In this document: one piece after another, positions 1 through 27,884 of the stretch
Layout: each line of letters opens with the position of its first letter
Numbering within the stretch: position 1 is the stretch's first letter
Source: an uncultured virus (IMG/VR IMGVR_UViG_3300025669_002088)
Taxonomy: Duplodnaviria > Heunggongvirae > Uroviricota > Caudoviricetes
Direction: 5' to 3' (one strand)
DNA length: 64,000 nucleotides
Virus record (IMG/VR): IMGVR_UViG_3300025669_002088
Location: 1-64,000 of that record
Translations under genes and position numbers: made by a program
The notes under the pieces: generated by a model
Told to the model about the DNA's origin: nothing
The model's database searches: none
What the model saw: only the letters and a program-made list of their open reading frames with translations

Positions 1-95
1 TGGTCTCTCAGGACTTTGAACTGTAGTTCGGAAGCTACAGCCCACTCCTTGGGGTTGCCTCCGCCGACATGCACAATGGCCTCATCTATCCTCAT
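1..95 (-). CDS. 5' part of a class I SAM-dependent methyltransferase (runs off the window); identical to the start of 45347..45973
   Basis: Bases 1..127 are the exact reverse complement of 45315..45441. The ATG at 95 corresponds to 45347. Confidence 0.8.
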   Translation of the reverse strand, partial: MRIDEAIVHVGGGNPKEWAVASELQFKVLRD

Positions 96-194
96 TTGTT
101 CATCCTTTGTGACTTAGATGTCGCACCCCAAATCCTTCCCGAAGGGGCGAGGCAGTCACTGTAGGGGTTTGGATCCCATTGAGGTTTGATCATC

Positions 195-1010
195 CTAAAC
201 CTCAATGGGATCCAGATGCGGGTTTTTCAGAAGACTGCTCCCCAATACCGCTGTCAGATCAGAGTCCCGGTGCAGCACTCTCGGTTGGAGAACCTTCTCC
301 CGCCCCATCAGTTTGAGAATCGCTGCCTTATCCCCTGTTACGTTCGGGAGTGGCTCCGGTATAGTCCGGGCGAGCCAGCGAGCGTGGACGGCACCCACGA
401 ACTGACTCTGGGTCAGGTCCAGAATGTGGGATGAGATCGCCCCGTCCCAGGTCTGACCTGGCGCAAGAGTTGGAATCTCCACCAACATCACCTGACTGCG
501 GGCACACACAAAGTCCAGGAGAGCGAGGCAGTCTTCAGTGGAGATGTGTTCTATAGCATGGGAGGATACGAAGATGTCGAATGTTCCCATATCGGACATC
601 TCCCAAAGAGGCTTGTCCGCAGCGATGTTCAGGACCCCTCGTCCGATGGCCTCTGGGCTCGTCTGTTGAACGGCGTAGGGGACCATTTCGTACCCGGTCC
701 ACCCTGCAATGGGGAAGACCCTCATACACTCTGCTGCCAGCCACCCATCATAGGAGCCGAACTCAACGACCCGTGCCTGAGAAAGGTCCATCCCCCAGTC
801 CTTTAGTTGTTGGAAGGACCGGAGGAACCACTGCACGTCAGCGCAGTGCTGCTGTTTGAGTTTGGGGTACAGTGTGTCCCAGATCTCACGGTGCTCAGCA
901 TAGGTGAACTCAGGGTAATGTGCCCGCCAGAGATCCCATATTCGGGACGATGTCAGGAAGTCCTGTGCTCCCTTGATCTTATCGACGATGTTCCGATTTT
1001 CTCCTACCAT
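195..1010 (-). CDS. class I SAM-dependent methyltransferase
   Basis: VVEFGSYDG SAM motif, GYE, and FDIFVSSHAIEHI. Confidence 0.75.
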   Translation of the reverse strand: MVGENRNIVDKIKGAQDFLTSSRIWDLWRAHYPEFTYAEHREIWDTLYPKLKQQHCADVQWFLRSFQQLKDWGMDLSQARVVEFGSYDGWLAAECMRVFPIAGWTGYEMVPYAVQQTSPEAIGRGVLNIAADKPLWEMSDMGTFDIFVSSHAIEHISTEDCLALLDFVCARSQVMLVEIPTLAPGQTWDGAISSHILDLTQSQFVGAVHARWLARTIPEPLPNVTGDKAAILKLMGREKVLQPRVLHRDSDLTAVLGSSLLKNPHLDPIEV

Positions 1011-2047
1011 GGTATCAACTCGTCCGGGGTTTCCTCTGCGGGCACCCCGTCTAGAATTTGGGTGAGTCGTTCAGTAAGCAACCCGACCCGTGCCGAACAG
1101 GTGTGGTTTCGTTGGATAAGCCGAGCAGCATTACGAGTGATCCTTCTCCGTTCAGTGTTGTTCTTCAGATAGTATCTTAGCTTGTCCAGGTAATTTAGGT
1201 GGTCAATGACCACCATCGTTTCTCCGTCCACGAACCCGTTGATTGCTGCGTCCTTGGGCAGAGGGGCCATAACGAGGCATCCGCAGGCCATTGACTCATA
1301 GAACTTCTGAACGGGGACATTGATGATGCTCCCACAAAAAAGGATCGTTTTAGACTGTCTCAGACAATCAGCATACCAGTTTTGGTGCTTGTCGAAAACA
1401 GGGATATCGCTGGTCTTCTCTCGGGGCGTTGTGGAAATCAATCTAAAAATGATGTCCTTAGCCTCACGAGACCGGAGATGATTTGTTACAAGGATTCGAA
1501 TGGGATAGAAACGTCCTATGGCTCCGGTAAAAAACACGTCAAAGGGACGCTCTTCCTCCAAGGTTGTGTGGAAAAACCATTCAGGCACACAGAAGGGTAC
1601 CCGGAGGAAAGGGAGATCCGAAGCCGGTTGGAGGATCCGTTTGTAAGGATCCGTCATCCAGGCTGTCATCACGTCCCACCCTTTACCCTTGGTGGGAAAA
1701 GGATTCTGGGGAAAAGGATGCTCATCTATGTTTCTCACCCAGTGCAGCCACTGAGCGAGGAAGGCACTGGAGAGAGTGGGGACCATTTTCACAGCTTGGG
1801 TCATGGCAGGTTCCGCCCAGTCCACGATCATCTCTGAAACAGGCCGAAGGTGTGACAAAGCATGAGGGTCGCTTTGGACACGGAAAACATTCAGGGTTGC
1901 GGGACCTTCATTAAAAGCGACATCAGCGGACTGTCCCTCATCGACTTGTGTCAGATGAGGAGAGCGACCCATTGCTTCGAACAGATGTCGAGAGTGGGAT
2001 CGGTCACTGATGGTTGACACTGGGATGCGTACACGCAGTTTGGTCAT
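1004..2047 (-). CDS. glycosyltransferase (GT-B, CgeB/Glyco_trans_1_2-like C-terminus)
   Basis: DVFFTG..YPIR, KFYESMACG, YYLKNNTERRRITRNA...HT motifs. Confidence 0.75.
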   Translation of the reverse strand: MTKLRVRIPVSTISDRSHSRHLFEAMGRSPHLTQVDEGQSADVAFNEGPATLNVFRVQSDPHALSHLRPVSEMIVDWAEPAMTQAVKMVPTLSSAFLAQWLHWVRNIDEHPFPQNPFPTKGKGWDVMTAWMTDPYKRILQPASDLPFLRVPFCVPEWFFHTTLEEERPFDVFFTGAIGRFYPIRILVTNHLRSREAKDIIFRLISTTPREKTSDIPVFDKHQNWYADCLRQSKTILFCGSIINVPVQKFYESMACGCLVMAPLPKDAAINGFVDGETMVVIDHLNYLDKLRYYLKNNTERRRITRNAARLIQRNHTCSARVGLLTERLTQILDGVPAEETPDELIPW

Positions 2048-2048
2048 C

Positions 2049-3083
2049 TTAGCGTTTCCATGCCAGCAGCGTTCGCATCAATCCACTACCACGTTCTGCG
2101 ACCACAGAACCTTCTCCAGCGGCCCCCGATTTGCGGCACCAATCGAAGACAGCTTCAGGTTTCACGAATGAGGAGTTTCCTCCTACGGGATCTTCGGGAG
2201 CAGGACAGTCGAGGAACACAGTGGGAGCCTTTGCCACCAACCGCCGGAAGATCTCATGTCCCTGTTCATCCCGCCCATCCACTTGGTGGTGATTGAGCAG
2301 GGATAGGCAGACGATGAAGTCAGTTCGTTTCTGATGTTCGGTCACGTCCGGGATGTTGCCACATTTGTGGAAGCTGGCCCGAGGTGCCTTGTCCTCGTCA
2401 CACCAGGCCCCGATGACCTTCATCCACGCCAGCGCATTGCCCGTGGCGACACACTTGGCGTCGAGATCGATCCCGACCATACTGTGACCCCGCCGGGCGA
2501 GGCCGCATGTCAGTACGCCCGAGTTACACGCCACATCCATACCGTAGGTTGCGTTTGGGAGATGTTTCGCCAGGTAGTCCCCCAGGACGGCAGCCCGGAA
2601 TTCCGAGTCCCTCCGCCATCCCCTCCAGAGAGACAAGTCGGGATGCTCCACCCATTGGTATAGGCTCAGACCCCCGTTCTGGGCAAACAGAGCTTCCTTC
2701 AAACGCCACCACTCCGAGGCTCGGTAAACAACTTCCACGGGTACTTTGGGCAACCCCAGGGCGAGGGCTGTGCAGGATCGGTGCAACCCGTCAGTGATGA
2801 TAATCTGACCATGCGGATTGATCGCCACCTTGATCCGTTGCTTAGGATCGAAACCCTTGGTCTGGATAGACCGCAACAGTTCCTTGACGCCTTCCAGATC
2901 CCGGTCATGACCCGAGGGAGTGTATTCCTCAGGGTCCTTTCCGGCGATGAGTCCTTCTATAACGGAGGACCGGGTGTGTAGGGCCAGTGCCCTGACTCCA
3001 AGGCCACCTTCCTGCCACCAGAGCCAGTGAGGGGGCACTTCGATGTGGTTACCAAAATAGATCTCTGCTTCTTTCGGGTTCAT
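2049..3083 (-). CDS. ParB/Srx-like N-terminal domain fused to a SAM methyltransferase
   Basis: LLRSIQTKGF...IITDGLHR (ParB-like), then MDVACNSG..GIDLD and CLSLLNH. Start taken at the ATG of MNPKE. Confidence 0.65.
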   Translation of the reverse strand: MNPKEAEIYFGNHIEVPPHWLWWQEGGLGVRALALHTRSSVIEGLIAGKDPEEYTPSGHDRDLEGVKELLRSIQTKGFDPKQRIKVAINPHGQIIITDGLHRSCTALALGLPKVPVEVVYRASEWWRLKEALFAQNGGLSLYQWVEHPDLSLWRGWRRDSEFRAAVLGDYLAKHLPNATYGMDVACNSGVLTCGLARRGHSMVGIDLDAKCVATGNALAWMKVIGAWCDEDKAPRASFHKCGNIPDVTEHQKRTDFIVCLSLLNHHQVDGRDEQGHEIFRRLVAKAPTVFLDCPAPEDPVGGNSSFVKPEAVFDWCRKSGAAGEGSVVAERGSGLMRTLLAWKR

Positions 3084-3085
3084 CT

Positions 3086-6000
3086 CTATCCCTTCCAGTT
3101 TCCAAAGCAACCCTGACACGCCGGGTGAGCGTTCGGCTGGTCCCCCGTTACGGACAGCCGCAGTTGAGCATAGTGGTTGTTCTGCCAAGTACCTCCGAGC
3201 CGTATGTTACCGGAGGACTCAGATGGGGGATCTATCCGTCTGCACCCCGAAATCGCTCCCTTGGCGTCCAACCCCAGAGAGACCATCGGTGACATACATT
3301 TGCCTGGGGCACCCTCTGGCCCCAGGATCACCTCAGGCCACACCTCGACCAATTCCGCCCCCGGACAAGTTTTGGCGTGTGCTATTTCCGCTAACGCTTT
3401 GTCAGATCTGGGGGTTAAGACGTCGTTCAAGAAGTCCTTGTCCAATGGGCCATTGTGAGGCAACACATTGATCAGGTGTACGAATTGAACTCTAAGTTCC
3501 TTTGCCAGAGCTAGGAGGGCAGGGATCCTGTGTGCATTGCTATTCGTTACGACATAGGACACTCCCGAGCGGATCGGGGAGGCACTCATTAATCGGATCC
3601 CCTCTAATACCTTGAGCCAGAAATCGGTGCGGGTCGTGGCCTGGTGCTCCTCCGCCGTGGTGGCATTCAAGGACACGGAAAGGTAGCTGATGGGAAGCCC
3701 CTGAAGCTCCGCAGCATTTTTCCAGAGGAGACTGCCGTTGGTGATGAGCCCGACAACAACCTTATGTGACCCGCAGATGCGAATCAACTCCGGCAACTGT
3801 GGATGCAGCAGCGGTTCCCCGAAACCAGCGATACAGCAGCCCCGGATGGTGGGATACCTGTTCAAAGCTGTCGTCAGGGTTGCGGGGGTGATATCCCCTT
3901 GTTGAGGCACGCCTTCGGGAGTTTGTCGTTTGCAGGGGGTTGTACCGAACACACATTTGAAATTGCACTTGTCTGTGAGGTAAAGGGTCATCTCACGGGG
4001 TCCATGGCTGAACTCCCCTACGTAGGAAGCAAGGCGACGGTAGTCCTGATCTGCAGCCCGGAAGTCCATCTCCTTGTCCTCCGGTTGTTCCCCAGTCAGC
4101 CCCACGGTAGCACCCAAAAACTTGGCCTGGCGAATTTCGTTGCCTGGTTCAGCCAACCACTCCTGCATCAACATCTGAGGGTACTTTGACAACCAACCCA
4201 TCCAGGATAACTTCCGATGTTTCTGCATCAGTCGCTTCCAACGGACGAAAGCCATCTCGGGTGTCTGGGATGCGAGATGCGTTCCAAAGATCTCGGCAGT
4301 CCGGGTGTATTCCTCGGTCCACACCCCATTAGTTTCTTTGCGGACTCTACCAGGGGAGTTGTCGGCCACGATCTCGTGGCCGTTTGTACGCAGTAGCTCA
4401 TTCTGGCCCATCTCACAGGAGAGGGCTTCTTTGTACGGGTACTGTTTACAGATAGCGTGATTGTATATTTTGACACCCTGAATGGGTCGGTGAACGTCAT
4501 CGTCCCACAACCACCCAACATACTGAGCAGCTTTCGTTGTCGTGATCTTTTCATAAAGGCGTCTGATAGCAGAGGGATCTAATAGCATATCAGCATCGAT
4601 CTGAACGTAATAGGGTGTCTGACAACGATCCATCATCTGCTGGAAGGCCCGCCACATAGGGGCTACATTACGAATATCCTCCCGAAGAAATAGGGAATCC
4701 TGGTTGTCTAAGTGTTTGTGACAGGTCGGTGTTGATGGTTCTCCGCTAGAGATAACAAATACGGTCACAAAGTTTTGCAGATCCTGTTTGCCATTTGCCA
4801 TTTCTGATTCCTTTGCCGGGTGTGCAGGAGGATTTACCCTAATAGGGTGTACGGGAGGGTTTACCAGGGCAGGAGTGGAAAGCGACAAAGCTGGGGCTGT
4901 GACCGCCGCTGGGACGGGTTCCTGTGGCATCATGGGGAAGCCTAACCCTTGCAGAATGTCAGTAGCCTCCGCCTTGTACTGGAGGGACAACCTGTCAAGC
5001 AGTTCCCTTTGGGCATGAAGCAGTTTAATCCTGTCCGCCGGATGATCAAGAAGATGCTGGGTAAGCCTTCGGATTTCATCACTAGCAATGGCTGGTCGGA
5101 CACAACATAGTTCCTGTGCCCATTTTGGCAGATCCTTGACCCAACGAATAGTATCACACAAAACTACGGGGGTGCCTGCGTAGATGGCCTCCATCACGAG
5201 GTAAGGCCAGGTGTCCGACAGGCTCGTGTGGATCATCACGTCCATAGAGGACACGAGTTTGACGGCTGCTCCACGGGAAAGTACACCGTATGTTTTCCAA
5301 CTCTGAGCGGCAACGAGAAGAGCCTGAACGGCAGCCCCCCGCAGTTCTAATGTTGATGACGTTGACAGGTGTAAGTGTCCACTGGTCTGGGTTGCTCCTG
5401 CAACGCATGCCAAAATATTTTTAGCATTCGAAGGGTAATGTCCGCAAAACCCCACCATCACAGAGCCTGGCTTTTTTGGTGCCCTCCCTAATGACTGAAG
5501 TCGTTGGGAGTCCCATACGGGGACCATTCGGGTAGCTCCTACAGGAAGAACATCTCGGGTTTCAAGCCACAGGAACCGGCCCTGTCCACTGGCTGACATC
5601 CGTAGAGCTTCGCTTAATGTTCCTCCCTCACCCATCAGATCAGAGCCAGCAAAGCCACTGTGCCACAGAATGTGTGCAAGTTTGGGGTAGTAGGCACAGA
5701 GTTTTCGTGCTCCTGTCCACCAGCCATGGAACAAAACGGGTTGACCCGAACGGAGTGCCTCATCCGCTTCTGCACGAGAGACTGCTTTGAACCCGATGCT
5801 CAAAAGACCGTCAGTGAAGGCTTGTTGTCCGGCCCCTCCGGGGACACATGTGAGCGGGACGTTGCCTTGGGGTACGAGGATGGGGGGTGGTCTGGGTGTG
5901 ATCACTTGGGGAGTAGCCGAAATCTTTTTGGGTGCTTCTTTAGGGGGGTTTGGAGCTACCCACGTGCCGTCCAAAACACCTAGCCCCCGGCGAAGGAGTT

Positions 6001-6694
6001 CCTTAGCTTCAGACTCCGCCCATGTTGCTCTGTTTCCTTTACCTGTCACTATAAAGCGACCCCGGACCATTGAGCGTTCTGACTCCAGCACAGGCCGGTC
6101 CCAGATGTTTTCCCCATGCTGAAGGCATACGGGCATCCCTTCGAGCAACGAAGTGATATCCTTGTGCGCTGGTTTCCGGGGGAGCCTGCGGATTCTATAT
6201 GCAGCCTTGGCATCCTTGCCATTCGGGATTGGGGGCCACCCTCGGATTTCCCTCAGGAGCTTCGTGGTGTAGGACATAGAGGTGCCCACCAAGCCATCCT
6301 TGTCCCCCTTCCAGAAGGTTACACAATCGTGGATCATGTCATAGAAGTAACAGTTTCGAGTGCCCGACCATTCATAACCCTCCAAGAAGGCTTGGATAGA
6401 AGCCGCAGCCCTGTTCGGAGGTTGAAGGTCATCATCATCCGCCAGCATCACCAGTTCAGCGTCGGTCCTGGCCACCAAGGCGTTCAGCTTCACCGTGACC
6501 TTGGGATCGGCAACAACCTGATAGGGAACATCTGCTTCAGCGGCCACCTCTTTGCCAGGGTCCTCAGCCTCTCCCGCCACCAAGATCTCAACATCCCAAC
6601 CGTCAGGAATGCCCTGCTGTTGCTGGAGAGAGTCCAGGCACGCTCGGAGAAGCTGCGGCCTGTGATGTGTAGCGACTAGGAAAGCGGCTTTCAT
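3086..6694 (-). CDS. multidomain glycosyltransferase (GT2 + GT-B-like + GT2-like) fused to a radical SAM/SPASM domain
   Basis: ADDDD and IDADM DxD motifs, SDTWPYLVMEA (GT4-like), CNFKC..C, GFGEPLLHP, ITNGSLL, terminal CQGC. Confidence 0.8.
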   Translation of the reverse strand: MKAAFLVATHHRPQLLRACLDSLQQQQGIPDGWDVEILVAGEAEDPGKEVAAEADVPYQVVADPKVTVKLNALVARTDAELVMLADDDDLQPPNRAAASIQAFLEGYEWSGTRNCYFYDMIHDCVTFWKGDKDGLVGTSMSYTTKLLREIRGWPPIPNGKDAKAAYRIRRLPRKPAHKDITSLLEGMPVCLQHGENIWDRPVLESERSMVRGRFIVTGKGNRATWAESEAKELLRRGLGVLDGTWVAPNPPKEAPKKISATPQVITPRPPPILVPQGNVPLTCVPGGAGQQAFTDGLLSIGFKAVSRAEADEALRSGQPVLFHGWWTGARKLCAYYPKLAHILWHSGFAGSDLMGEGGTLSEALRMSASGQGRFLWLETRDVLPVGATRMVPVWDSQRLQSLGRAPKKPGSVMVGFCGHYPSNAKNILACVAGATQTSGHLHLSTSSTLELRGAAVQALLVAAQSWKTYGVLSRGAAVKLVSSMDVMIHTSLSDTWPYLVMEAIYAGTPVVLCDTIRWVKDLPKWAQELCCVRPAIASDEIRRLTQHLLDHPADRIKLLHAQRELLDRLSLQYKAEATDILQGLGFPMMPQEPVPAAVTAPALSLSTPALVNPPVHPIRVNPPAHPAKESEMANGKQDLQNFVTVFVISSGEPSTPTCHKHLDNQDSLFLREDIRNVAPMWRAFQQMMDRCQTPYYVQIDADMLLDPSAIRRLYEKITTTKAAQYVGWLWDDDVHRPIQGVKIYNHAICKQYPYKEALSCEMGQNELLRTNGHEIVADNSPGRVRKETNGVWTEEYTRTAEIFGTHLASQTPEMAFVRWKRLMQKHRKLSWMGWLSKYPQMLMQEWLAEPGNEIRQAKFLGATVGLTGEQPEDKEMDFRAADQDYRRLASYVGEFSHGPREMTLYLTDKCNFKCVFGTTPCKRQTPEGVPQQGDITPATLTTALNRYPTIRGCCIAGFGEPLLHPQLPELIRICGSHKVVVGLITNGSLLWKNAAELQGLPISYLSVSLNATTAEEHQATTRTDFWLKVLEGIRLMSASPIRSGVSYVVTNSNAHRIPALLALAKELRVQFVHLINVLPHNGPLDKDFLNDVLTPRSDKALAEIAHAKTCPGAELVEVWPEVILGPEGAPGKCMSPMVSLGLDAKGAISGCRRIDPPSESSGNIRLGGTWQNNHYAQLRLSVTGDQPNAHPACQGCFGNWKG

Positions 6695-6723
6695 GTCCCT
6701 TACCTTTGGTAGAGGAACTATAG

Positions 6724-7994
6724 TCAACAATGCTGTAGCAATTTCTTGCTTTCATTGTCTTTTATGGTAACGGGGACTATAGGCTCCCGCCCTTCATCAA
6801 ACAAACCATCAGAAGTCCAGAAGAACCCTTTACGATTTATTTGACTTAGCCGCACCCACCATTGGATCTCAAAGAGATCGAGTTTCAAGTTGGAAGCCGC
6901 ATTCAAGTCAGCATCGGTGATAAAACCACATTTGCCGCATCTGAACGTCTTACCTTTCCTGTTACTCTTACGGACCCAGCCACATTGGCTACACCTCTGA
7001 GACCTAAACTCATTCGCTACCTCCCGAAAAAGGAAACCTTCCTCCTCAGAGAGACGAACAAGTTTGTCTTTGATCAAAGTGTAACGCCAGTGTGACATAT
7101 AACGTGAACTCCGTTCACCCCTACGGAGATGCTTGATCTTCTCAAAACGAACTTCTTTCACGTCCTTGAAGTTAAGTTGATTCAAGGACCAATGGATGTA
7201 GTTCTTGCGATGCTCTTGGGTACGACGAAAGCCATTCGATCCCTTTTGCTTACGAGCAAGTTTTGCTTGGATCGTTTGGAGGTTATGCCCATGGGGACAC
7301 GACAGTGTCGTTGCACCATTTGAAAGAGTCAACGCAGTAACTAATCCCTGGTCTGCCCCAACTATCTGACTTCCTGAAACGTTTTTGTTTGGTACTTCGT
7401 AAATTAGATGTAGTGTGTCTTCAGAGATCCTAACACACACTTTCAGGATTCCTTTAGTCTGCCACTTGTTGGAGCATCGAGTTCTTTTGATGGGGACTCT
7501 AATGTGTGGAATACCAAGGGATGAGAGTTGGACAAACAAAAGATGTCTGTCTCTTGGAAACTCACAAAGCGAGAGTCTAGTTCCAGATTGATTCCTGAAG
7601 CATCTGGCTTAACAAGAGGTTGCCGGTCAACCTTTGACTGAAGTCGTTTGTACTTGCCACCTTCTCGCTGAAGGTTGGCCAACACGAAAAGTTGTTTCCG
7701 TCGTTTCTCTGTGGCTGCCTTGAGCATCATAATGGCTTGTTTTCCAGCAGCTTGCTGAAGCCTTGCTGACATCCACGTTGGGAACTGCTTGAGATATTTT
7801 GTGGGTAAATGATTCTTGCCCTTGAAGTCCAGTCTGTTTGAGCTTGGGAAAATGTTCCACGCTGGAAACCCCTTCTCCCATATGTCGTTTATGATGCATT
7901 GGACAAAAAGGCGGTACTCTCCGATAAGTTCGCCTACCAATCTCACCTTACCTGGGTTTGCAAACCGCAAACTATGGGCAGAAGACCGAATCAT
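6724..7994 (-). pseudogene. tnpB: frameshifted TnpB (IS200/605/607-type RNA-guided nuclease)
   Basis: Split into ORFs 7443..7994 and 6724..7539. RuvC GADQG / FEKI / DADLNAA and Zn finger SQRCSQCG..FRCGKCG are present; the segment is AT-rich. Confidence 0.8.
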
Positions 7995-8065
7995 TTAGCC
8001 ACCTTAAGTTCTCAATCCCATGGTTGCAGTTTACTAAAGAAAAACAAAAAACACAAGCCTTCTTA

Positions 8066-8740
8066 TCAAGGTAAGCTATACCACCCAGAGGAGTTCTCAG
8101 CACCTATGAATATGGCGGAGAGTTCCACGGCACGCCTGATGCGGTCAATAGTGTCCTGGATGAGAGCCTTCGCTTTGTCAGACGGTCCTGAAGCGGCCCT
8201 GAGAAGGTACGCCGGATGGTAAATCGGCACGATAGGGATCCCACCAGCCTCATAGATCAGATCCGTTACCTTGAGCAGCGAACCCATCGCACCCCACTGC
8301 TGGGACAATTTACTGGTGGCATGCCTTCCCAACGTGATCAGGACTCTCGGACCGATGGCGGCGATCTGACGTTGGAGGAAGGGGTAGCAAACAGCAACCT
8401 CGTCAGGCTGGGGGTCACGGTTCCCCGGAGGCCGACATTTGAGCACGTTGGCGATGTAACACTCATCCCGTGTCACCCCCGCCCTTGTCAGGAGAACGTC
8501 CAGGATGCCCCCCGCACGGCCCACAAAGGGCACTCCCTGCTCATCCTCGTGTTGACCGGGTGCCTCTCCTACGATCATGATGCGGGCGTTGGGGTCACCG
8601 GCTCCGAAGACGACATTATGTCGATCTTTTTGGAGCCTGCATCGGGGGCAGTTCACCAGGGCTTTCTGGATGTGTTTCAGGGTCTCTTTCGACATCATTT
8701 CTCCTTGGGGCGATTTATCATCCATTTGGGAAGGGTTCAA
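8066..8740 (-). CDS. udg: uracil-DNA glycosylase family 4
   Basis: CPRCRL, VGEAPG, PFVGRAG, NVLKCRPPGNRDP, YHPAYLLR. Confidence 0.92.
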   Translation of the reverse strand: MNPSQMDDKSPQGEMMSKETLKHIQKALVNCPRCRLQKDRHNVVFGAGDPNARIMIVGEAPGQHEDEQGVPFVGRAGGILDVLLTRAGVTRDECYIANVLKCRPPGNRDPQPDEVAVCYPFLQRQIAAIGPRVLITLGRHATSKLSQQWGAMGSLLKVTDLIYEAGGIPIVPIYHPAYLLRAASGPSDKAKALIQDTIDRIRRAVELSAIFIGAENSSGWYSLP

Positions 8741-8842
8741 AGGCGACCTTCATTCGTGCCCTTGCAGTAACAGCGGGGACAGACCAGTCCTTGGTTTTTA
8801 TGGCCATTGTGTTCTCTCCCATTGTGATGGGGCCTCTAAGAT

Positions 8843-9526
8843 TCAGGGGGTGACATCGGGCTGAAACGTCGGTGTGACGACGGCGGGTCTCCCTGGGAGC
8901 ATAATTCTGTTGTCCTGAAGGGGGAGGCCCACTACATCCACGAGGGGGCTCTGGGCCAGCAACTCGTTGGCGGAGGATTCGTCCAGATCGAACAGGTACT
9001 CGTCCTCCTCAGCGTAGGCTCGTAACGTGTCGTTCTCCCAACGCACCTCTCGAACCATCTCATAAGGTCCGAGTACCCGACGCCGAGCACGTTCTGCCCA
9101 CTCTGTGTCCACGTAAATCCTATCAGGTGGGGTGCCCGGATCCGCTTGGTGGGTAACGGAGAGAAGGGCAGACCCAAATCGGATTCTGTTCCTGGAGGGG
9201 GGAACCACACCACCGTCCCCTCCCATGGGGCGATTAAGGGTCTGCATGATCGCCCGTGCCTGGATGAACAGCTCGTCTCGGTCGTCCTGGCAGTCAGCGA
9301 TAAGGAAGCAACTTTGACTTTGCCTAAGGTCCATGCACGCTCGGACACACATCCAGGTGCTGGCCCCAAGCTGACGGAAACAATCGTCGGTAGGAACTTG
9401 GGGTTTTGTGGAAAGCAACCCGCCACTACTATGACGAGAGACGTTCATCAGGAAAGCATCCTGCATGAACTCATCCAAGGGACGCAGACCCAGTCTGCTA
9501 TACGCCCTCTCCAATCCACTCCACAT
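8843..9526 (-). CDS. hypothetical protein
   Basis: 227-aa ORF co-oriented within a minus-strand run. Confidence 0.55.
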   Translation of the reverse strand: MWSGLERAYSRLGLRPLDEFMQDAFLMNVSRHSSGGLLSTKPQVPTDDCFRQLGASTWMCVRACMDLRQSQSCFLIADCQDDRDELFIQARAIMQTLNRPMGGDGGVVPPSRNRIRFGSALLSVTHQADPGTPPDRIYVDTEWAERARRRVLGPYEMVREVRWENDTLRAYAEEDEYLFDLDESSANELLAQSPLVDVVGLPLQDNRIMLPGRPAVVTPTFQPDVTP

Positions 9527-9540
9527 CGGTGCTTGTTTGA

Positions 9541-10146
9541 TCAGGGATCACCTCCGGTAGTCAATTCCAAAATAGTACGGAGCCGTGGTTCTCTAAACAG
9601 GGGAAAGCCATAGGCCACGTCATCCAGGAACGACCCCGTCGCCCCAATACGGTGCATCCGGGCAAGGAGGGAGTCCGTATCAAAGGTGGCCCCATAGTAG
9701 GCCCAGTCTTCGGGGATGGTACCCCAGATCCGATTTCGTAACCTTCCCCTGTGCCTGGGTTTCTCAGTTTTCCAGGTCAGGTCGACCACTTTGCCGTTGA
9801 TGGAGGCCCACCCGTGGAGGGTGGGGACGCTGTTCAACCCGATGGCCCACCCCTCGCAGTAAATTAGTTCCCGTGATGTATCGAAAGCCACCAAGAGTTG
9901 GGCGTTGTAATAGCAATGCCCCAATCTGAAGTGTTTCTCGGGGCACAGGGTAAGAGCTTGCAGGACTGTGGTCCTTTCCTGCGGGGTCAAAGGACCAGAG
10001 GAAAAGGGTGAACCCCTGTCCAGGACATAATCCTCGCCACCTTGGTAGTTGTAGCCCTCCGGGAAGACGAGTCCGAGCCTCTTCTTGAAACGGACGGTCT
10101 CCCTCAGATACTGGAGCAGTGTTTCCTTGACGGTCCCCACGGACAC
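9541..10146 (-). CDS. hypothetical phage protein (CYYNA..YCEG..HGW..VVDLTW family)
   Basis: GGAGG RBS before GTG; transglutaminase-like Cys/His/Asp spacing. Confidence 0.65.
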   Translation of the reverse strand: MSVGTVKETLLQYLRETVRFKKRLGLVFPEGYNYQGGEDYVLDRGSPFSSGPLTPQERTTVLQALTLCPEKHFRLGHCYYNAQLLVAFDTSRELIYCEGWAIGLNSVPTLHGWASINGKVVDLTWKTEKPRHRGRLRNRIWGTIPEDWAYYGATFDTDSLLARMHRIGATGSFLDDVAYGFPLFREPRLRTILELTTGGDP

Positions 10147-10160
10147 CTCCTGTCACTGTT

Positions 10161-10418
10161 CTACTCGGATGGGATAGAAAAGCGCACCGGCTCAGGAGGA
10201 TTGTCGTCCTCGGTCAGTTCCCAAAACCTGTAGGGGGCCTGGGAGTCATCATCCGTGTGGCTCACCCACCAAGTGTCAGGGTGTCCCTCTACTGGTTTCA
10301 AGACGACCCCGTGTGTTGCCCGGCGTTTGGCGAGACTGGCTTTGACAGCCACAATATCACAGGTGAGGTCGGGATTTGTCAGTACAGGTAAATCTGGCCT
10401 GATTGATGTGACGTTCAT
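10161..10418 (-). CDS. hypothetical protein
   Basis: TAATG overlap with the upstream gene. Confidence 0.55.
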   Translation of the reverse strand: MNVTSIRPDLPVLTNPDLTCDIVAVKASLAKRRATHGVVLKPVEGHPDTWWVSHTDDDSQAPYRFWELTEDDNPPEPVRFSIPSE

Positions 10419-11263
10419 TAGAAGAGCCACAGAACTTGGCCAGGTAGCGCCCCATGATAACCATCTCTGAAGCGGACATTTGCGGGTACTGGTTCCGGGG
10501 TCACCTGTCCGACCTTGATTGTGTAGGAACACGATCCCGTACAGGTGACGGCAAAATAGTTAGGAACGTGCGCCTGTCGTATCTCTACCAGCTCGTTATA
10601 GAGCACCTCGGGTGTCTGATGTCCCCCATACGGTAGTTCTTCCCAAGCAAAGAGCACCTTTCCTTTGTGGCGCACCTGCCCCAGGAAGACGGCTTGCTTG
10701 TGGGCCTGCAACCCTTTATAGATGCCACCCACGACGAGATCCTTGACCCGTAGCTTCCCACCACGGGGGAGCCGCCGTTGCGCCTCTACTTTCTCCAGAT
10801 CCTTGTAGAGGAGAGAGTTCATCGGGGCCAGTCGCATCGAAGATCCGAGCTTCACCCACCTGAACGGTCCCTCCAGGATCCCGTCCGGGGGAATCCCCTG
10901 GGTGAAGATGATGTAGAGGATCACATCCTCCCGCAGATCCACAAGGTGGTTTTCGGGGGTCATTACCTTCCAGGCACGTCCACCTTCCGCCCGGAGGTCA
11001 AGCCCCACGAGCTTCAGGTAGGGGATCGGGTCATTGTCCCGCAGGTCGAAGGTGGCGTCGTCGGCCCTGTCCACCACACCACCGACGTTACCCAACGTCC
11101 AGTAACGAGCGGTGGTGTCCTTTTTGGACTTGGCGTCAACGACCATGACGGGGGTGGCATGCACCATCCCCACGTACATCTGCTGCTCGATAGGTTCCCT
11201 GGCGAAGACTTTGAGCTTCTCCGGGATGCCCCCGCTGTTGCCTCTCTTGGCGTAGATGTTCAT
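10418..11263 (-). CDS. hypothetical protein
   Basis: Long ORF with GAGGAGGGG RBS. Confidence 0.7.
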   Translation of the reverse strand: MNIYAKRGNSGGIPEKLKVFAREPIEQQMYVGMVHATPVMVVDAKSKKDTTARYWTLGNVGGVVDRADDATFDLRDNDPIPYLKLVGLDLRAEGGRAWKVMTPENHLVDLREDVILYIIFTQGIPPDGILEGPFRWVKLGSSMRLAPMNSLLYKDLEKVEAQRRLPRGGKLRVKDLVVGGIYKGLQAHKQAVFLGQVRHKGKVLFAWEELPYGGHQTPEVLYNELVEIRQAHVPNYFAVTCTGSCSYTIKVGQVTPEPVPANVRFRDGYHGALPGQVLWLF

Positions 11264-11273
11264 ATCCCCCTCC

Positions 11274-12146
11274 TCAGCACCAGTAGGCATAGAGCAGCGG
11301 CCTCAACTGATCGAGGAAAGCCGCAGGGTCGATCACACAGTCCAACCACAAGACCAGGGCCACCACGGTCATTGGCAGGGGTGGGCGGAAGTCCCGCTTC
11401 AGGTGCCGTAGGAGGGCTCCTGTGGCCATAGGTCCGTATAGGTCGTCCCCTCGTACCCTTGGACCCCTCCGGACCCCTGTAAGGTAGGAGTAGGTCGAGT
11501 CACAGAGCTTCACCGGCCCCAACTCGTCCACGATGTTCCCCAATTCATCCGGCGAGGGCACGGGGGCGGTGGGATCCAACCTGAAACTCCGTGCTGGTTT
11601 GCGGAACCGGATGCGGAAGCCGTTGTAGGGATAGATGCCGGATTGCCTGAGGCGACGCACCCTCGTCTGTTGTCCGTGCCACTGGGACTCCTCGACCCAA
11701 TCCAGGGTGTTGTCCCTGCGGTGCCACTGGGTGGAGCACTCAGGTGGGACGAACATCAGCACCTGGGGATCGCCACCCTCCGTTTCATGGATGAAACACT
11801 GTTCCGGTGCCACCCCGAACATCCGCTGGGGATCACGCTCCAGCATCTGTTCAATCATCTGGATGTCCCACTGGAAGCTGTGCCCCGAGATCGCACGGGG
11901 ATCCTCCCTGCGGTGAAGCTCGATGATGTCAGCCTTGTTCCGTTGCATCCAGGACATGAAATCCTGAAGGCTCGTGGCACACCGCTCCTCGGCGGTAGCG
12001 GCGAGCTTCTCCCAGTCTAGCCGGGGGTCCAACATCGTTGGATTGAGGGTGTCGGGGGAATCGATCTTCAGGTTGGTGATCCCGTAGCCGACAGTTTTGT
12101 GGACCCGGATACCCATCAGATCTCCCCGATCTTTGCCGCCAGCCAC
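11274..12146 (-). CDS. hypothetical protein
   Basis: 290-aa ORF in the operon; true start may be 12116. Confidence 0.65.
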   Translation of the reverse strand: MAGGKDRGDLMGIRVHKTVGYGITNLKIDSPDTLNPTMLDPRLDWEKLAATAEERCATSLQDFMSWMQRNKADIIELHRREDPRAISGHSFQWDIQMIEQMLERDPQRMFGVAPEQCFIHETEGGDPQVLMFVPPECSTQWHRRDNTLDWVEESQWHGQQTRVRRLRQSGIYPYNGFRIRFRKPARSFRLDPTAPVPSPDELGNIVDELGPVKLCDSTYSYLTGVRRGPRVRGDDLYGPMATGALLRHLKRDFRPPLPMTVVALVLWLDCVIDPAAFLDQLRPLLYAYWC

Positions 12147-12490
12147 CGGGCCATATTCCAGCCCACCTCGGTGGGTTCAAATCGAGCCGTGGGGGAGAAG
12201 TGTTCCGTGTTTTCCGAGAAGTGAGGGTCGATCTTCCCCTGTCGGAGCAACTGTGCCAGGGTCACGTTCAGGAACAGGAGCACCTTGCGGCCCTCGTAGT
12301 TGGTGCAGTCCAGGTACTCGATCTCGATGATCAACGCCCCTGGGTGGTCTTCATCCCAACGCAGGACTTTGTAGCGGGACGGGTCAGGGTTGGGGAGAGG
12401 AGGCGCAGGGGTTGAGGGTTGGGGGCAACAGCCGCCACGGGGTTTGTCAAAGGAACTCATGCTGTTACTGAACCCAATGTGAAGACCCAT
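12116..12490 (-). CDS. conserved phage hypothetical protein
   Basis: PNPDP..YLDCTNYEGRKVL..IDPHF..SPTARFEPTEVGW pattern. Confidence 0.65.
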   Translation of the reverse strand: MGLHIGFSNSMSSFDKPRGGCCPQPSTPAPPLPNPDPSRYKVLRWDEDHPGALIIEIEYLDCTNYEGRKVLLFLNVTLAQLLRQGKIDPHFSENTEHFSPTARFEPTEVGWNMARWLAAKIGEI

Positions 12491-12663
12491 CTAAAACCTC
12501 TCGATGAAGACGTGTGTGACGGTGATCCGCCGCACCAATCCTCTTTGAGCGTCCCTGACCTTTCCCGTTTCAGAGAAGCGTATCACCTCATCTACTCGAA
12601 GCCTGCCTTTGATGATCAAAACACGCTGCGTGGAGTGGGTTCCGACCTTGGCTATTATCCATT

Positions 12664-13377
12664 TCAAGGGGCTTCACCGATGGCCTCCTGCTGGAGCTTG
12701 TCCAGGTTGAGTACCAGCCCGCAGCGGTTGCATCTCATGTCGCAGAGGTTGCGGGTCACGGTCTCGGGGCTGTCCCACACGGTCCCGATAGGGTGGCACG
12801 AGGATGCTTCCCCGGCGACCACGGTGCCGTCCGGATTGATAGAGGGCGTACAGAACTTCCCCAGACCCCAGAGGTATGCCAGCGCCTGCCCCACGTTCCC
12901 GAAAGATCGGGCACAGCTTCGAAGGTTGAAGCAGTAAGGGGTGAGCCGGTTGCACAGGAGCTTATTGGTCAAAGCCCGCCCGAAGGGGGCAACCTGTCGG
13001 ATCTGGTTTTCGTATTTGACCTTGGGGTGGGGGAACACCTTGATCGTGTCGGGGTAGAATCGGGGATCGTTGGTGACCTGGACACCCCACACCTGGGGAA
13101 GCACCTGCTCCCGTAGTTCCTCATTGGCCAAGAAGAGTCCGTTGGACATCAGAAGCACCTTCAGCCCCATCGTGTTGGCGACACTCAGGAAGGTCAACAG
13201 ATTGGGGTTCTCCGTGGGCTCCCCGCCGCTCAGGAACACCACGGGGGCGTCCAGACTGCGAAGGAAGTTCAGGGCCATTAGGTACGTGTTGAAGGCCATG
13301 TGCGCCCCGTTGTGGCTGGCCTCAATCAGGCAGTGGGTGCAGCCCATCGTGCAGCAGTTGGTGATTCGGATCAGCAA
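12664..13377 (-). CDS. radical SAM protein
   Basis: CxxxCxxC (CTMGCTHC), LSGGEPT, MSNG, Cys-rich C-terminus; AGGAGG RBS. Confidence 0.85.
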   Translation of the reverse strand: MLIRITNCCTMGCTHCLIEASHNGAHMAFNTYLMALNFLRSLDAPVVFLSGGEPTENPNLLTFLSVANTMGLKVLLMSNGLFLANEELREQVLPQVWGVQVTNDPRFYPDTIKVFPHPKVKYENQIRQVAPFGRALTNKLLCNRLTPYCFNLRSCARSFGNVGQALAYLWGLGKFCTPSINPDGTVVAGEASSCHPIGTVWDSPETVTRNLCDMRCNRCGLVLNLDKLQQEAIGEAP

Positions 13378-13415
13378 AGTTACCTCCTAAAGAGGGGTTT
13401 CCGTTGTGTTGCACA

Positions 13416-13646
13416 TCACGCTTCCCTTAACCGTTCACCCGCTTCATACAGGATAATGCCTCGTCGGTCGTCCCACTCTATGTCCAACGCCATCGTTAAC
13501 AGGATGTCAGCTAGTAGCGTGTTTGGGACAGCCCCCAAGAACGGTGGGTCTATCGTTTTGTCCAGCCATCCTCGTATGCGTTTCTCTTGCAAAGGTTCTA
13601 ACGGAAACCGCCCCAAAAGTACCAGCATTTCTTTGACCGTTGCCAT
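13416..13646 (-). CDS. hypothetical protein
   Basis: Coupled small ORF. Confidence 0.5.
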   Translation of the reverse strand: MATVKEMLVLLGRFPLEPLQEKRIRGWLDKTIDPPFLGAVPNTLLADILLTMALDIEWDDRRGIILYEAGERLREA

Positions 13647-13966
13647 TAGCAGCTTCCTTTTGGCTGTATGGCCCCGGCCCTCACGGAAACGTCCTGGCCG
13701 TCCAGCGAAAGGGTCACGGCCCCACCCTCACAGAGGCGGCAAAGGAGTTTGTTGGCGTCTTTGACGTAGATGGGGATGCCTGTAATCGCCCGGAACACCA
13801 CGAACCCTTTCCGAGTCTGGCGGTCCTCCTGGTGGTATCTCTCCTGAACCAATCTGGACTCATCGAGGGGTTCCCATTTGGGATGGCCATAGCCAGGAGC
13901 GAACTGACTGACGGAACGAGGGATGAAGTCCCCGATGGAAATCGTATGTTTAGGGAAGCCCGTCAT
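13646..13966 (-). CDS. hypothetical protein
   Basis: ATGA-coupled ORF. Confidence 0.5.
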   Translation of the reverse strand: MTGFPKHTISIGDFIPRSVSQFAPGYGHPKWEPLDESRLVQERYHQEDRQTRKGFVVFRAITGIPIYVKDANKLLCRLCEGGAVTLSLDGQDVSVRAGAIQPKGSC

Positions 13967-14328
13967 GTGTTTATAGTCCTGTGATAACGGATCTCACAAG
14001 CAGCCACAGCGTCCGCACCCGTATTGTAGCCTTCGAACTCTCTAACCGTATTGAGCCCGCAAGTCCAGTGCTTCCCTACGTTGCAGATCATCCCCACGTG
14101 CCTGTGTCCTTCCAGCACAATGTATGCTTCCTGAGTGTCCTCCTGCCAAGCTCCCGTTTCCGAAGTACCCTCGAAGGACACGGGACGAAGATGGTAACGA
14201 TCAGGCAACTTGGGACGAGACCCCGAAAGCACAGAGCGTGTCAACGCTTTTACTTTGCGCTGGTAGCGGACAACCTCGAACAGGCCAAGGATCAGGAAGG
14301 CAATGCCAACAACGACATAGGCATTCAT
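13963..14328 (-). CDS. hypothetical membrane-anchored protein
   Basis: N-terminal hydrophobic helix; coupled to the upstream gene. Confidence 0.55.
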   Translation of the reverse strand: MNAYVVVGIAFLILGLFEVVRYQRKVKALTRSVLSGSRPKLPDRYHLRPVSFEGTSETGAWQEDTQEAYIVLEGHRHVGMICNVGKHWTCGLNTVREFEGYNTGADAVAACEIRYHRTINT

Positions 14329-14555
14329 CACTCTACCTCCCAACCGGGCTGGACCCACATGACCTCGTTGCGTTCCTTCACGATGACTTTGCAGATTTCG
14401 TCATCGGCGGACATCTTGATCCCGTCACGGGAACAGCCGACCACTTCCTTCGTGGCGGTGTCCTTGTAAACGGTCGGGACGTCGGACAGGACGAACAGTA
14501 GAGCGACAAAGGCGAACGCCGCCAGGATACCAAGGGTACGAAGGGGATGTTTCAT
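14328..14555 (-). CDS. small membrane protein
   Basis: GGAGG RBS; first gene after the promoter motif at 14578..14605. Confidence 0.6.
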   Translation of the reverse strand: MKHPLRTLGILAAFAFVALLFVLSDVPTVYKDTATKEVVGCSRDGIKMSADDEICKVIVKERNEVMWVQPGWEVE

Positions 14556-14577
14556 TTTGTTATGCCTCCTACCCTGT

Positions 14578-16320
14578 CTACTCAGGGGTCGGCTCAGATG
14601 ATCCCTCATCATCACCCCACAGATCTTGGAACGTTTGTTGGTCCCAAACCCTGTCGTTATCCTTCTTGCGTAAAATGTAAATTGGATCCGGGAGTGGAAC
14701 ATACTCTTCCCGAGGGCGGTAGAGGGGTAACAAAGGCTTCTTCCCCCTCTCATAGTCGTCCCAGGACAAAACCTGGATCCGGGGACACCTCGGATTAGGA
14801 GAAACCGGAAGAGCGTCGTTGGTTTCCTTCAGATACCGTGCATCTGAATCATTCATGGGATACAGGCTGTAGGTTACGAAATAGGGTGGACGAGAACGCA
14901 CACCACGGATCAAACCGTCCTCTAACTTGGCACGAGCCTTCCCAATCTTATTCTGAAGTGACCCGGTCTGTGCCGTGATGTCCACCCAGGCCAGTAAAGT
15001 CCCGTCCTCCCTGTACAACCTTCCGTCTTTACCCCCATCAGCACCAAGGGAGTCTGATCCCTCCGCCTCCAATAAAGCCACCCACACTTGTTCCAGTTTT
15101 TTATGTCCCTTCAACCCTTTGAGCACCTTGCTGTTGAAGGCTGGATTGGTGCTCAATTTATGCGCTCCGGCGTAGGTGCGAGGTGACCCGGTCAATTCGA
15201 TTTTGTCTAACGCAGGTGACTCAGGAAAAGCCTTCGTCAGACGCTCCAATGCAAACTCCGGGAAGTGGATGTTCACATCGGAGACCCAGAACCGGCGGTT
15301 TGTTCTCATCGCAGCCACCGCCGTTGTTCCTGTTCCTCCAAAGGGATCGATAACCAGATCGCCTTCTTTGGTGGTGGCTTTAATGAGGGCCTCCACCAGA
15401 GCTTCCGGTTTCTGTGTACTATTGGCCCATTTGCCTTTCACTTTTTCTTTGGGTGTGAGGAAAAGGTTATCCCAAAAATGGGATGCATTTTTAAGGATGC
15501 CCCCGTCGCCCACGTAAACCTTCTTCCAGGGACGCCGGTAGATCCCTCCGTCCTTTGCCTTACTGTCCGTGTAGTCCAACAGCCCTTGATCCTCGTACTC
15601 TTGCATCGTTTTCCGGGTGATGCCCCTGATGCATTTGTACCCCGTCCATTCATAGGTATAGGCGGGATGTCCTCCGATCAGGTCCGAGCGTGTGTACTCT
15701 CCAATTGCGTCCGTGTAGGTTTGCCTTCGGCACTTTAGGGGGATCTGATGGCTCTCCCAATAGGGTTTGGCTCCCCCCTTCCAGATCACTGTCAACGTGT
15801 CCACGCAACGTCCCTGCCACTGGGTGTTGGGGCGTTCCTTAGAGGTTCTTCTCCAGTAGATGGGCTCTGCTGGGGTGTTGAAAATATAACGGCAGAGGGT
15901 GTGTATGGTAGTCCCGAACTTGTCATCCGCATGGAAGATCAAAGCGTGACCGGGTCTCAGTGCCCGGTGGGACTTCCAGATGATATAGGCCACATTGATC
16001 AGAAAGGCCCATTCTGAATTGGGCCTTAGTACCTTCTCCATCTCAAGGAAGTCCAGTAGGCCCGTACACTTTTGAAGGGCCTTTTCTGCTCTCACTGTTT
16101 CCTCCGAGGCCATTTTGGACAAGGCGCTAAAAGCCTTGTTCTGAGCTTCGTCCGCTCCCTCTAACCCATAAACAGGGTTAAGGGTGTACGGTGGATCCAG
16201 GTAGATGCACCCCGCTACATTCTCGGGCGTTAACAGAGGGGACAGAACGTCCCCAACATGACCGAAACCGAGCCAATTGCCATCATCGTAAAGCATTTTG
16301 AGCACCTCCTTTTCAGACAC
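14578..16320 (-). CDS. N6-adenine/N4-cytosine DNA methyltransferase (beta class) with an extra C-terminal domain
   Basis: IYLDPPY precedes TQKPEAL..DPFGGTGTT; C-terminal GADGGKDG segment. Confidence 0.88.
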   Translation of the reverse strand: MSEKEVLKMLYDDGNWLGFGHVGDVLSPLLTPENVAGCIYLDPPYTLNPVYGLEGADEAQNKAFSALSKMASEETVRAEKALQKCTGLLDFLEMEKVLRPNSEWAFLINVAYIIWKSHRALRPGHALIFHADDKFGTTIHTLCRYIFNTPAEPIYWRRTSKERPNTQWQGRCVDTLTVIWKGGAKPYWESHQIPLKCRRQTYTDAIGEYTRSDLIGGHPAYTYEWTGYKCIRGITRKTMQEYEDQGLLDYTDSKAKDGGIYRRPWKKVYVGDGGILKNASHFWDNLFLTPKEKVKGKWANSTQKPEALVEALIKATTKEGDLVIDPFGGTGTTAVAAMRTNRRFWVSDVNIHFPEFALERLTKAFPESPALDKIELTGSPRTYAGAHKLSTNPAFNSKVLKGLKGHKKLEQVWVALLEAEGSDSLGADGGKDGRLYREDGTLLAWVDITAQTGSLQNKIGKARAKLEDGLIRGVRSRPPYFVTYSLYPMNDSDARYLKETNDALPVSPNPRCPRIQVLSWDDYERGKKPLLPLYRPREEYVPLPDPIYILRKKDNDRVWDQQTFQDLWGDDEGSSEPTPE

Positions 16321-16437
16321 TTCTACCCCAACGGGTGTGAAAGGAACGGAAAACCAGCGCTTTGGGTGGCTGTGTTAGGAGGCGGGAGGTACCTTCCGAC
16401 CCGGACCCCAGATGCCGTGCTCAAATCCCGTGGTGCT

Positions 16438-16842
16438 TTACGAGCCCGTATGGTCCCACACACCGTCGCCCAGGTATGTGATGTCGTCCCAGATCGTGCC
16501 ATGGGATTTTCCCACGTCGGTACTGAAACTGTAGATCATCACGGTGCCATCGTTCAGTCGGCAATAGGAGTTGGTCTTTCTGCCCACGAAAGTGCTCAGT
16601 TTAGAGCTTTCCGCCAGGGCCGAAAACCAGAAGGATCTCTGATCAGTCCTATTTCGCATGGGGGTAATCTCCTCTTTGTTGAAGACCGCTGCATCGCAGA
16701 GGGGCTCGAAGAAGCCACCCTCGGACAGTGGTTTGCAAGCGTATTGATCTGGATCTGCCGGAGTCCCTCTGTTCCATTCCGCTGCACAATGGAGAACGTG
16801 CTTGCAGTCCTTACAACGGAGTAGGTCCTTTCGGGACGACAT
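16438..16842 (-). CDS. hypothetical Cys-rich protein
   Basis: TGATG coupling; CKDCKH..C. Confidence 0.55.
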   Translation of the reverse strand: MSSRKDLLRCKDCKHVLHCAAEWNRGTPADPDQYACKPLSEGGFFEPLCDAAVFNKEEITPMRNRTDQRSFWFSALAESSKLSTFVGRKTNSYCRLNDGTVMIYSFSTDVGKSHGTIWDDITYLGDGVWDHTGS

Positions 16843-17246
16843 CACTCCTCGACCTGAACGATGATGACCTTCGCCACGTTGCCCATGGGGAAGGTTTCCT
16901 TCAGGGCCTTGTGCGGACCACGAGCCGGGACCAACACCTCGATGTGGTGCTCCGAGAAGGAGATCAGCGTACCACGGGCACCCGTCGCCCCAGGCCCCTT
17001 GGTCCGGGGGACCACCTCGACGGTGTCGCCCCGCCTGTAGGACACGCAGGTGCTGTATATGGACTTCGAGGGCAGGCTGTCTTTGAGGACCTGGATCAGG
17101 GCCGGTCTCAGTATGTCCCCGAGGATGGTGGCGAAGTGTTTCGTCAGCGTCTTCATCCGTTCCTCGGGGTACCCCCCGAAGATGTCCCACACGGCCCTGC
17201 TAACCCCCGTCCTCACGAGGTCTTTCTGGTCTTCCATCGACAACAT
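16842..17246 (-). CDS. hypothetical protein
   Basis: AAGGAG RBS; downstream of rtcB. Confidence 0.6.
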   Translation of the reverse strand: MLSMEDQKDLVRTGVSRAVWDIFGGYPEERMKTLTKHFATILGDILRPALIQVLKDSLPSKSIYSTCVSYRRGDTVEVVPRTKGPGATGARGTLISFSEHHIEVLVPARGPHKALKETFPMGNVAKVIIVQVEE

Positions 17247-17267
17247 AGCGACGCTCCTTCGGGGCTG

Positions 17268-18440: not shown

Positions 18441-18461
18441 TAAACCCTCCGTCACAAGGGT

Positions 18462-19274: not shown

Positions 19275-19386
19275 GGTGACAACCTCCTGTCACCATTTCC
19301 TTGTGGATAGCCATTTTATTGAGATGCCTTTAGGACCCGTTCCCTGTTGTAGAACGCTGCAGTGGGGAATGGGACTATGGGGTCCG

Positions 19387-21218: not shown

Positions 21219-21219
21219 G

Positions 21220-27881: not shown

Positions 27882-27884
27882 GGG

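Follow-up and report, generated by a model that had tools for sequence, protein, structure and literature searches.

Does the beginning of this phage sequence hold a genuine inverted duplication made by a mobile element, together with a target for the guide of that element, or does it reflect the way in which the sequence was assembled? The stretch of DNA that we analysed, below called the window, comprises the first 64,000 bases of one 125,741-base contig (record G000), window base 1 being contig base 1. Positions 1..127 are the exact reverse complement of 45315..45441, with letter-for-letter agreement, and the match ends at the right end of a small mobile element (mini copy 2), the common part being the last three letters of the element, GGT (45315..45317). 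The minus strand at 132..121 reads as an empty GGGG/T site, and the left flank of mini copy 2, ending at 44966, is without relation to the site in 1..132. The match, the empty site and the unrelated flank had been described correctly in the first-pass annotation, which left three alternatives: an element-mediated duplication or rearrangement, a self-targeting guide, or an assembly join through the repeat.

The suggestion to size the repeat by extending it to the left leads nowhere, as the contig begins at window base 1 and no sequence lies beyond. At the opposite contig end 125615..125741 is identical to 119119..119245, again over exactly 127 bases, and no exact repeat in the contig is longer than these two end overlaps (the next in length has 114 bases). 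The second overlap sits in the upstream part common to three IscB elements (G000:C1, 85415..86873, 117942..119400 and 124503..125741), the contig ending inside the third. In a de Bruijn graph each edge carries the k-mer of its starting node, and a final k of 127 is usual for this kind of assembly pipeline. The same exact length at both contig ends is thus the signature of a k = 127 de Bruijn graph; the match itself is far beyond chance, its length being an assembler constant and not the size of a biological repeat.

Artificial 127-base overlaps at the termini of SPAdes contigs are described in the relevant part of PMC5923482, and the likeness extends to exactly 127 identical bases placed at the first and the last contig base. 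In the case reported in that part a closed phage contig overlaps with itself end to end, whereas in the present contig either end overlaps with a fork in the interior, placed at the mini IS607 element's right end in the one case and in the shared upstream part of the IscB elements in the other. We consider it very probable that the 127-base "inverted duplication" is a shared k-mer node of a k = 127 graph of the SPAdes type at the contig start, with one true copy. The overlap at 1..127 (minus strand) would then be the same single genomic copy as 45315..45441, that is, the upstream region and first codons of a 208-aa methyltransferase gene, printed twice.

Other records allow the order of the genome to be reconstructed. 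A 22-base pattern taken just right of the join retrieved one viral_contigs record, L005 (record G001, 54.6 kb). Read in reverse, L005/L038 corresponds to window 6125..1 followed by 45315..51338, both at 100%; the two parts share the 127 bases once, and there is no element between them. The pattern just left of mini copy 2 also retrieved one record, L006 (record G002, 188 kb), which matches 42821..45317 at 100% and then passes into another sequence on the right. As far as the CRISPR array, G001 runs parallel to the window with an unchanging offset, and within this array G001 and G002 overlap by 125 identical bases; together, these two relations give the true gene order, the full order being tiled from G001 and G002 only. 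The reconstructed order is 45315 onwards in reverse, an empty target site (site X), window 128..44966, mini copy 2 and the flank found in L006. By this reconstruction, the record joins two parts of a phage of ~0.5 Mb in the wrong order at 45317/45318. The CheckV completeness values of 24% (G000) and 36% (G002) fit a genome of ~0.52 Mb.

In the true genome, site X, an empty IS607-type target GGGG/T (125..132, minus strand), occupies the 99-base gap between two methyltransferase genes: the 271-aa one (195..1010, minus strand) lies 99 bases upstream of the 208-aa one. The latter, encoding a SAM methyltransferase (45347..45973), forms together with a UDP-glucose/GDP-mannose dehydrogenase-family gene a single-copy segment at 45347..46805 (plus strand) with 195..1010 as its true upstream neighbour, and has one locus in viral_contigs. 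The minus-strand run of methyltransferase, glycosyltransferase and radical-SAM genes (195..1010, 1004..2047, 2049..3188 and 3086..6730) truly continues into 45347 and beyond. A long palindrome at 170..214, which lies 40 bases away from site X, overlaps the 271-aa methyltransferase gene at its end.

The first-pass annotation rightly took 125..132 for a genuine, empty target with a G-rich motif; the contigs of all four sequencing runs compared, as well as the records to which L005 and L028 belong, have the site empty. A filled or inverted site X, sought via its left flank, was found neither in the single viral_contigs match nor in the single metagenome_contigs match (L028, in a 528,282-base contig), both of them empty. 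In viral_contigs, the right flank of site X occurs in a single record, which likewise has the empty site, and none of nine element left ends among 20 matches in that collection adjoins the left flank of site X. The aberrant join, in which the element right end is followed by the right flank of site X (45315..45318, plus strand), was seen in this contig only; a search for it in metagenome_contigs gave 0 matches, both this collection and viral_contigs being liable to omit records very near the window's own.

Several further features of the phage were recorded. A dispersed bipartite motif, consisting of two short conserved words ~12-13 bases apart, precedes many genes (14563, 20967, 22345, 29770, 30289, 33158, 33486, 36044 and 48147; inverted copies at 49819..63157) and probably serves as a phage promoter recognised by an alternative sigma factor. 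The window also encodes an RtcB ligase (17268..18455, minus strand), a WGR-PARP protein (31591..33138, minus strand) and a helicase followed by many ORFs with helicase-associated (HA) repeats (58547..63970, plus strand). In G000:C1 98000..105900 there is a cluster of related ORFs resembling split DNA methyltransferase genes, the motif having been identified by eye.

We then turned to sequencing-run contigs. Of 24 runs listed (23 from salt lake metagenomes and one marine), four were compared over 43950..48500 as Logan contigs. In all four the contig reaching 45315 carries the left flank of site X, and in runs X1 and X11 one 22,647-base contig passes through the site. The depth left of the element and over the methyltransferase gene is 54.8 and 56.3 in X1, and 16.6 and 16.8 in X11; contig depth being no copy number, the continuity is the stronger evidence. 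In L006 and in 4/4 runs, the sequence to the right of mini copy 2 is another one than in the window: the mixed loose ends behind 45317 were reproduced letter for letter in each run by flank sets including the L006 flank, while two trial sets without it failed to do so. Among the pieces listed in the four runs, none bridges 45317/45318. In X1 and X11 a joint from 45317 to 44990 fits a contig running between two element copies. Logan contigs drop variants; for instance, the window letter at 45252 is almost absent there, yet present in L006.

A true duplication was thus tested on two counts, with no doubled depth in X1 and X11 and no second locus of the 208-aa gene in viral_contigs. The first-pass annotation had reasoned that single-copy depth and the lack of reads holding both ends of copy 2 in these flanks would reveal a misassembly or a strain chimera, and, as far as contigs show, the depth is that of a single copy and no record has both ends in these flanks. 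Its proposal of an element-mediated duplication finds no support, the region being single-copy in every other record, and its third option, an assembly join through the repeat, gains support from the 127-base end overlaps, the single copy elsewhere and the different true flank.

Run X10, a possible source with depth near 8, is the only one of the four with a fork at 45315, as read from a contig start: its methyltransferase contig starts exactly at this base, which is the fork base of the window's graph. X10 has no fork on the left flank of site X or at the left end of copy 2, hence only one new junction is hinted at. The loose end on the site X flank is 255+ long, and the left-end contig is unbroken over 43950..45059. 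The X10 depth is 6.8 on the left and 8.6 on the right but falls to 2-4 further on, so that this comparison is noisy.

To understand how such a junction could arise, the nature of the element has to be considered. Mini copy 2 (44967..45316, plus strand) is a gene-less IS607 derivative of ~350 bases, composed of a left end with a promoter and the last ~288 bases of a tnpB element, which carry the omegaRNA scaffold and the right end; 45090..45317 folds with z = -4.46. The sigma-70-like promoter with an extended -10 (44970..44998, plus strand; 10/12 consensus positions, one site found against 0.3 expected) could drive the omegaRNA. Mini copy 1 (26427..26776, plus strand) belongs to the same family and is 91% identical to copy 2. 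A tnpB-only copy at 34222..35732 (plus strand, ORF from 34294), with the RuvC D/E/D motifs and the zinc finger present, is the likely partner in trans of the mini omegaRNAs. In this tnpB gene (34294..35802) the stop codon within the right end is gone, and the frame is 29 codons longer than that of the 473-aa copy.

In same-family copies of G002, which share the right end, a gene for the IS607 serine transposase TnpA overlaps the start of the TnpB gene. The TnpA proteins score 199.5 and 196.2 bits against NF033518 (cut-off 110), and the TnpB proteins beside them are 80-92% identical to the window TnpB. The right ends finish with GG and then T in 11/11 cases, one being the window's own join, and 11/11 distinct left junctions read GGG/T, GGGT occurring at 0.6% of positions. 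No target duplication beyond the core is seen at the junctions and there are no long terminal inverted repeats, copy 2 having only a ~10-base inverted motif at 44987 / 45295. Judged by these ends and genes, the element is assigned to the IS607 family with GGGT as its predicted target.

The curated IS607 TnpB model NF038280 was not listed for the window-family TnpB, and the general TnpB model NF040570 gave 88.5-91.8 bits against a cut-off of 100; falling below the curated IS607 TnpB model, these proteins represent a divergent TnpB clade. The RuvC D/E/D motifs and the zinc finger are intact in 4/4 TnpB proteins compared. We rejected membership in IS200/IS605, since the Y1 (HUH) TnpA PF01797 was found in 0/3 records (24, 9 and 36% complete), with the control positive in 6/14 genomes. 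An apparent hairpin spanning the left junction, its flank letters co-varying, was also considered and is not borne out by the tnpB-bearing copies.

The tnpA-bearing copies (L029, ~1035..1308, and L030) have a left end unlike that of the tnpB-only and mini copies, the common part being a short motif, and, upstream of tnpA, a small ORF that is conserved. G002 also has a third IS607 tnpA-tnpB pair (L031) and a truncated mini copy (L035, G002:C1 97454..97625) that has the left end without the right end and stops ~170 bases in. A second TnpB family has two copies, at window 6720..8081 and G000:C1 75962..77324, the window copy being split or shortened (271 aa vs 423 aa). The phage holds at least four families of RNA-guided elements.

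The features of H. pylori IS607 (PMC6188088) and CboIStron (10.1101/2023.11.20.567912), as given in the portions of these sources used here, are largely shared: tnpA directly upstream of tnpB in autonomous copies, GG common to the ends and to a (G)GG-rich target, no long terminal inverted repeats, a right end CGG, and a guide that is the right flank and matches the empty site. The same portion of the CboIStron study gives 5'-TGGG as the CboTnpB motif; here the junctions have the G-rich GGGT, and both together suggest a G-rich TAM. The differences from what these portions describe are that copy 2 is gene-less and that the target motif extends to GGGT at every junction seen; compared with CboIStron, no group I intron is evident in the 350 bases of copy 2. 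With a shared core of three letters, the crossover cannot be placed.

We can now ask why the graph forked at 45315. The source sample would have held an extra junction, in which the right flank of site X follows copy 2 at its right end, causing the fork; the assembler would have taken this junction over the majority one, re-entered used sequence and left the 127-base stub. Three shared bases are too few for a de Bruijn join, hence some read presumably held this junction. The likely donor is copy 2 itself, with which the most similar of the other copies has just 65 terminal bases in common. A mis-join via another near-identical copy was rejected on the same grounds: the closest of nine copies shares 65 exact terminal bases, fewer than 127, ~215 kb of the phage being outside this comparison. 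A contig matching copy 2 has 1.1-1.7 times the depth of the flanks, not twice, which speaks weakly against an identical copy in those ~215 kb.

The position of the join on an element end and a GGGT target points to a real minority product of transposition. The extra junction may be a real minority molecule made by an IS607 TnpA acting in trans, and we give moderate preference to a minority new insertion of copy 2 at site X. This is supported by the GGGT motif at the join, the start of the X10 contig at 45315 and the IS607 TnpA genes on same-family copies. The reciprocal junction, the left flank of site X followed by the element left end, was seen neither in X10 nor at any of the nine element left ends (0/9), and its absence weighs against both insertion and inversion, unless very few molecules represent the variant in the sample. 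Also, a minority path normally loses to the majority path, so that the route taken by the assembler counts against this reading.

The absence of a left-end junction at site X leads to the first alternative, a one-ended TnpA reaction in which the right end of copy 2 recombined with the inverted site X 45 kb away, so that in a minority of genomes the block 128..45317 is inverted or a non-reciprocal product is formed, the 127-base artefact remaining as it is. From 128 onward the window reads exactly as the inversion isomer, and the join uses copy-2-specific sequence, the next closest copy sharing only 65 bases, below k. In the part of PMC6188088 concerned, it is argued that the IS607 ends must be transferred to the GG target in succession, which may leave room for one-ended products, but the sequenced IS607 events in that part are simple insertions. 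Moreover, the reciprocal junction that this reaction predicts, the left flank of site X followed by the true right flank of copy 2, is unseen, the X-flank contig of X10 is unbroken, and both collection matches for the left flank of site X have the empty site. On this balance we regard the one-ended reaction as unlikely.

Slightly less probable still is a library chimera, that is, one fragment formed by a template switch at the shared GGT in a low-depth sample; the 127-base artefact would be the same. Three other records and 3/4 runs lack the join, it has 0 metagenome_contigs matches, no reciprocal junction is seen, and the depth of the forked run is near 8, all of which agrees with a chimera. 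Such a molecule, however, needs its breakpoint on an element end, of which ~0.5 Mb offers a few tens, and its landing point on GGGT (0.6%); both together would be far less likely than transposition is expected to be in a phage that has IS607 TnpA genes and many element copies. Finally, a real and fixed element-made inverted duplication of the methyltransferase region, placing a TAM and a target for self-targeting beside the guide, would account for an exact reverse-complement match that ends at the element end beside a G-rich motif but has next to no probability, as the match is exactly k long and has a counterpart of that length at the opposite end of the contig, L005 and L028 come from records with a single copy, the depth is alike on both sides, and the right flank of copy 2 differs in L006 and 4/4 runs.

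The idea of a self-targeting guide also falls, as its only perfect match is the artefactual one and the true right flank of copy 2, hence the guide, is different. With this flank there is no self-target in the consensus genome, as far as G000 and the loci retrieved by then represent it; against these we scanned 11 flanks as GGGT plus 16 bases, allowing at most 4 mismatches. The true copy 2 flank had five matches, all in the CRISPR locus of the phage, and nine other flanks had none. All five matches carry a mismatch next to the G-rich motif. The closest one is a degenerate repeat with GGGT (43858..43877, plus strand), with 2/16 mismatches, one next to the motif and one at position 16; the array repeats at 43413, 43490, 43561 and 43710 have 3-4 mismatches each, two of them motif-proximal. 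In the section of PMC10097598 that deals with mismatches, cutting by ISDra2 TnpB is abolished by double mismatches in positions 1-12, and by this rule the phage array is probably spared.

For the insertion that we favour at site X, the guide would find its match in sibling genomes with the empty X allele, and this would be ordinary TnpB homing; in the homing described in the corresponding part of 10.1101/2023.11.20.567912 the guide matches the empty site. In the insertion variant itself, the element would separate the G-rich motif from the target, and the guide would not match its own molecule.

The matches of the true guide in the CRISPR locus are explained by the position of copy 2 inside a CRISPR repeat. 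The phage has a type I-C locus (36508..43933, plus strand) comprising cas3, cas5, cas8c, cas7, an array and degenerate repeats; with no ORF between cas7 and the array, there is no cas1, cas2 or cas4 there. The leader-side spacers differ among G000, G001 and G002, and a search for self-targets with 17 spacer-like stretches gave a best non-self match of 18/19 bases and otherwise at most 14. Copy 2 interrupts a solitary type I-C-like repeat 1 kb past the array, behind a 299-aa ORF. The 5' 21 bases of the repeat are at 44946..44966 (plus strand) and the 3' 15 bases are in the L006 flank, the true right flank, which is absent from the window and found on the L006 minus strand right of position 5650. 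Joined to the 15 bases with which the true flank begins, 44946..44966 gives a 36-base unit that differs at 5-6 of 36 positions from the 13 array repeats, and the true guide thus begins with the 3' half of the repeat.

Solitary or degenerate CRISPR-like repeats off the array were also noted at 25103..25138 (plus strand), 48119..48150 (minus strand), 43845..43933 (plus strand), L033 and L034, two of these lying in G002. Some are situated just upstream of genes, and they are possible processing sites, regulatory RNAs or anti-CRISPR RNAs. The solitary repeat units and RNA anti-CRISPRs of phages, in the part of PMC10651486 that covers them, are alike in being single CRISPR-like repeats away from an array, whereas the phage studied here has its own type I-C cas genes and array, and the copy 2 unit is broken by the insertion. 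Stand-alone mobilised omegaRNA loci, as presented in the pertinent part of PMC10691335, resemble the mini copies in that gene-less copies, present in the genome that also encodes the effector, can supply guides in trans; the difference is that here one copy interrupts a solitary CRISPR repeat near a type I-C locus.

The insertion of copy 2 into the repeat looks fixed in the population: the site is filled in L006, in the runs the left flank runs into the element, and no empty allele occurs among the joints and loose ends listed. An uninterrupted version of the repeat was sought in relatives via the upstream 299-aa ORF, which has one viral_contigs locus, the filled one. GGGT sites lying in repeats number 6 of 1550 in G000, which corresponds to a chance of roughly 2% over ~11 insertions, a figure worked out afterwards. 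On the plain reading, the repeat simply offered a GGGT target. No published insertion of a TnpB element into a CRISPR repeat of a huge phage came up in a limited look at parts of the literature, too thin a basis for calling the case unpublished.

There is a slight chance that the insertion has been kept because a repeat-derived guide on the phage TnpB would bind or cut G-rich type I-C repeats and so act as an RNA-guided weapon of transposon origin against CRISPR arrays. If so, its targets would be trailer repeats of the phage itself, or the arrays that the host or rival phages carry. Against this reading, every near-match has one or two motif-adjacent mismatches. In an exact 17-base search of genome_contigs for host arrays matching the true guide there were 29 single matches, fewer than a rough chance estimate of ~70, and 0/29 were consensus array repeats; further repeat-like words were present in 2/29 loci (L054 and L061) and a second exact copy in 0/29.

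For contigs of this kind, an exact 127-base repeat touching base 1 of a record is to be taken as an assembler overlap, and the sequence beside a repeat, in this case the apparent guide, can be the wrong flank. The repeat-derived guide can be tested by a standard TAM and cleavage assay. Cas12 systems are proposed, in the part of PMC10691335 on their origin, to have arisen by transposon insertion near arrays, and the interrupted repeat, if indeed a source of such a weapon, would be a living snapshot of the omegaRNA-repeat fusion proposed for that origin. The join at 45317/45318 itself probably records a gene-less IS607 copy moved in trans within a wild jumbo-phage population.
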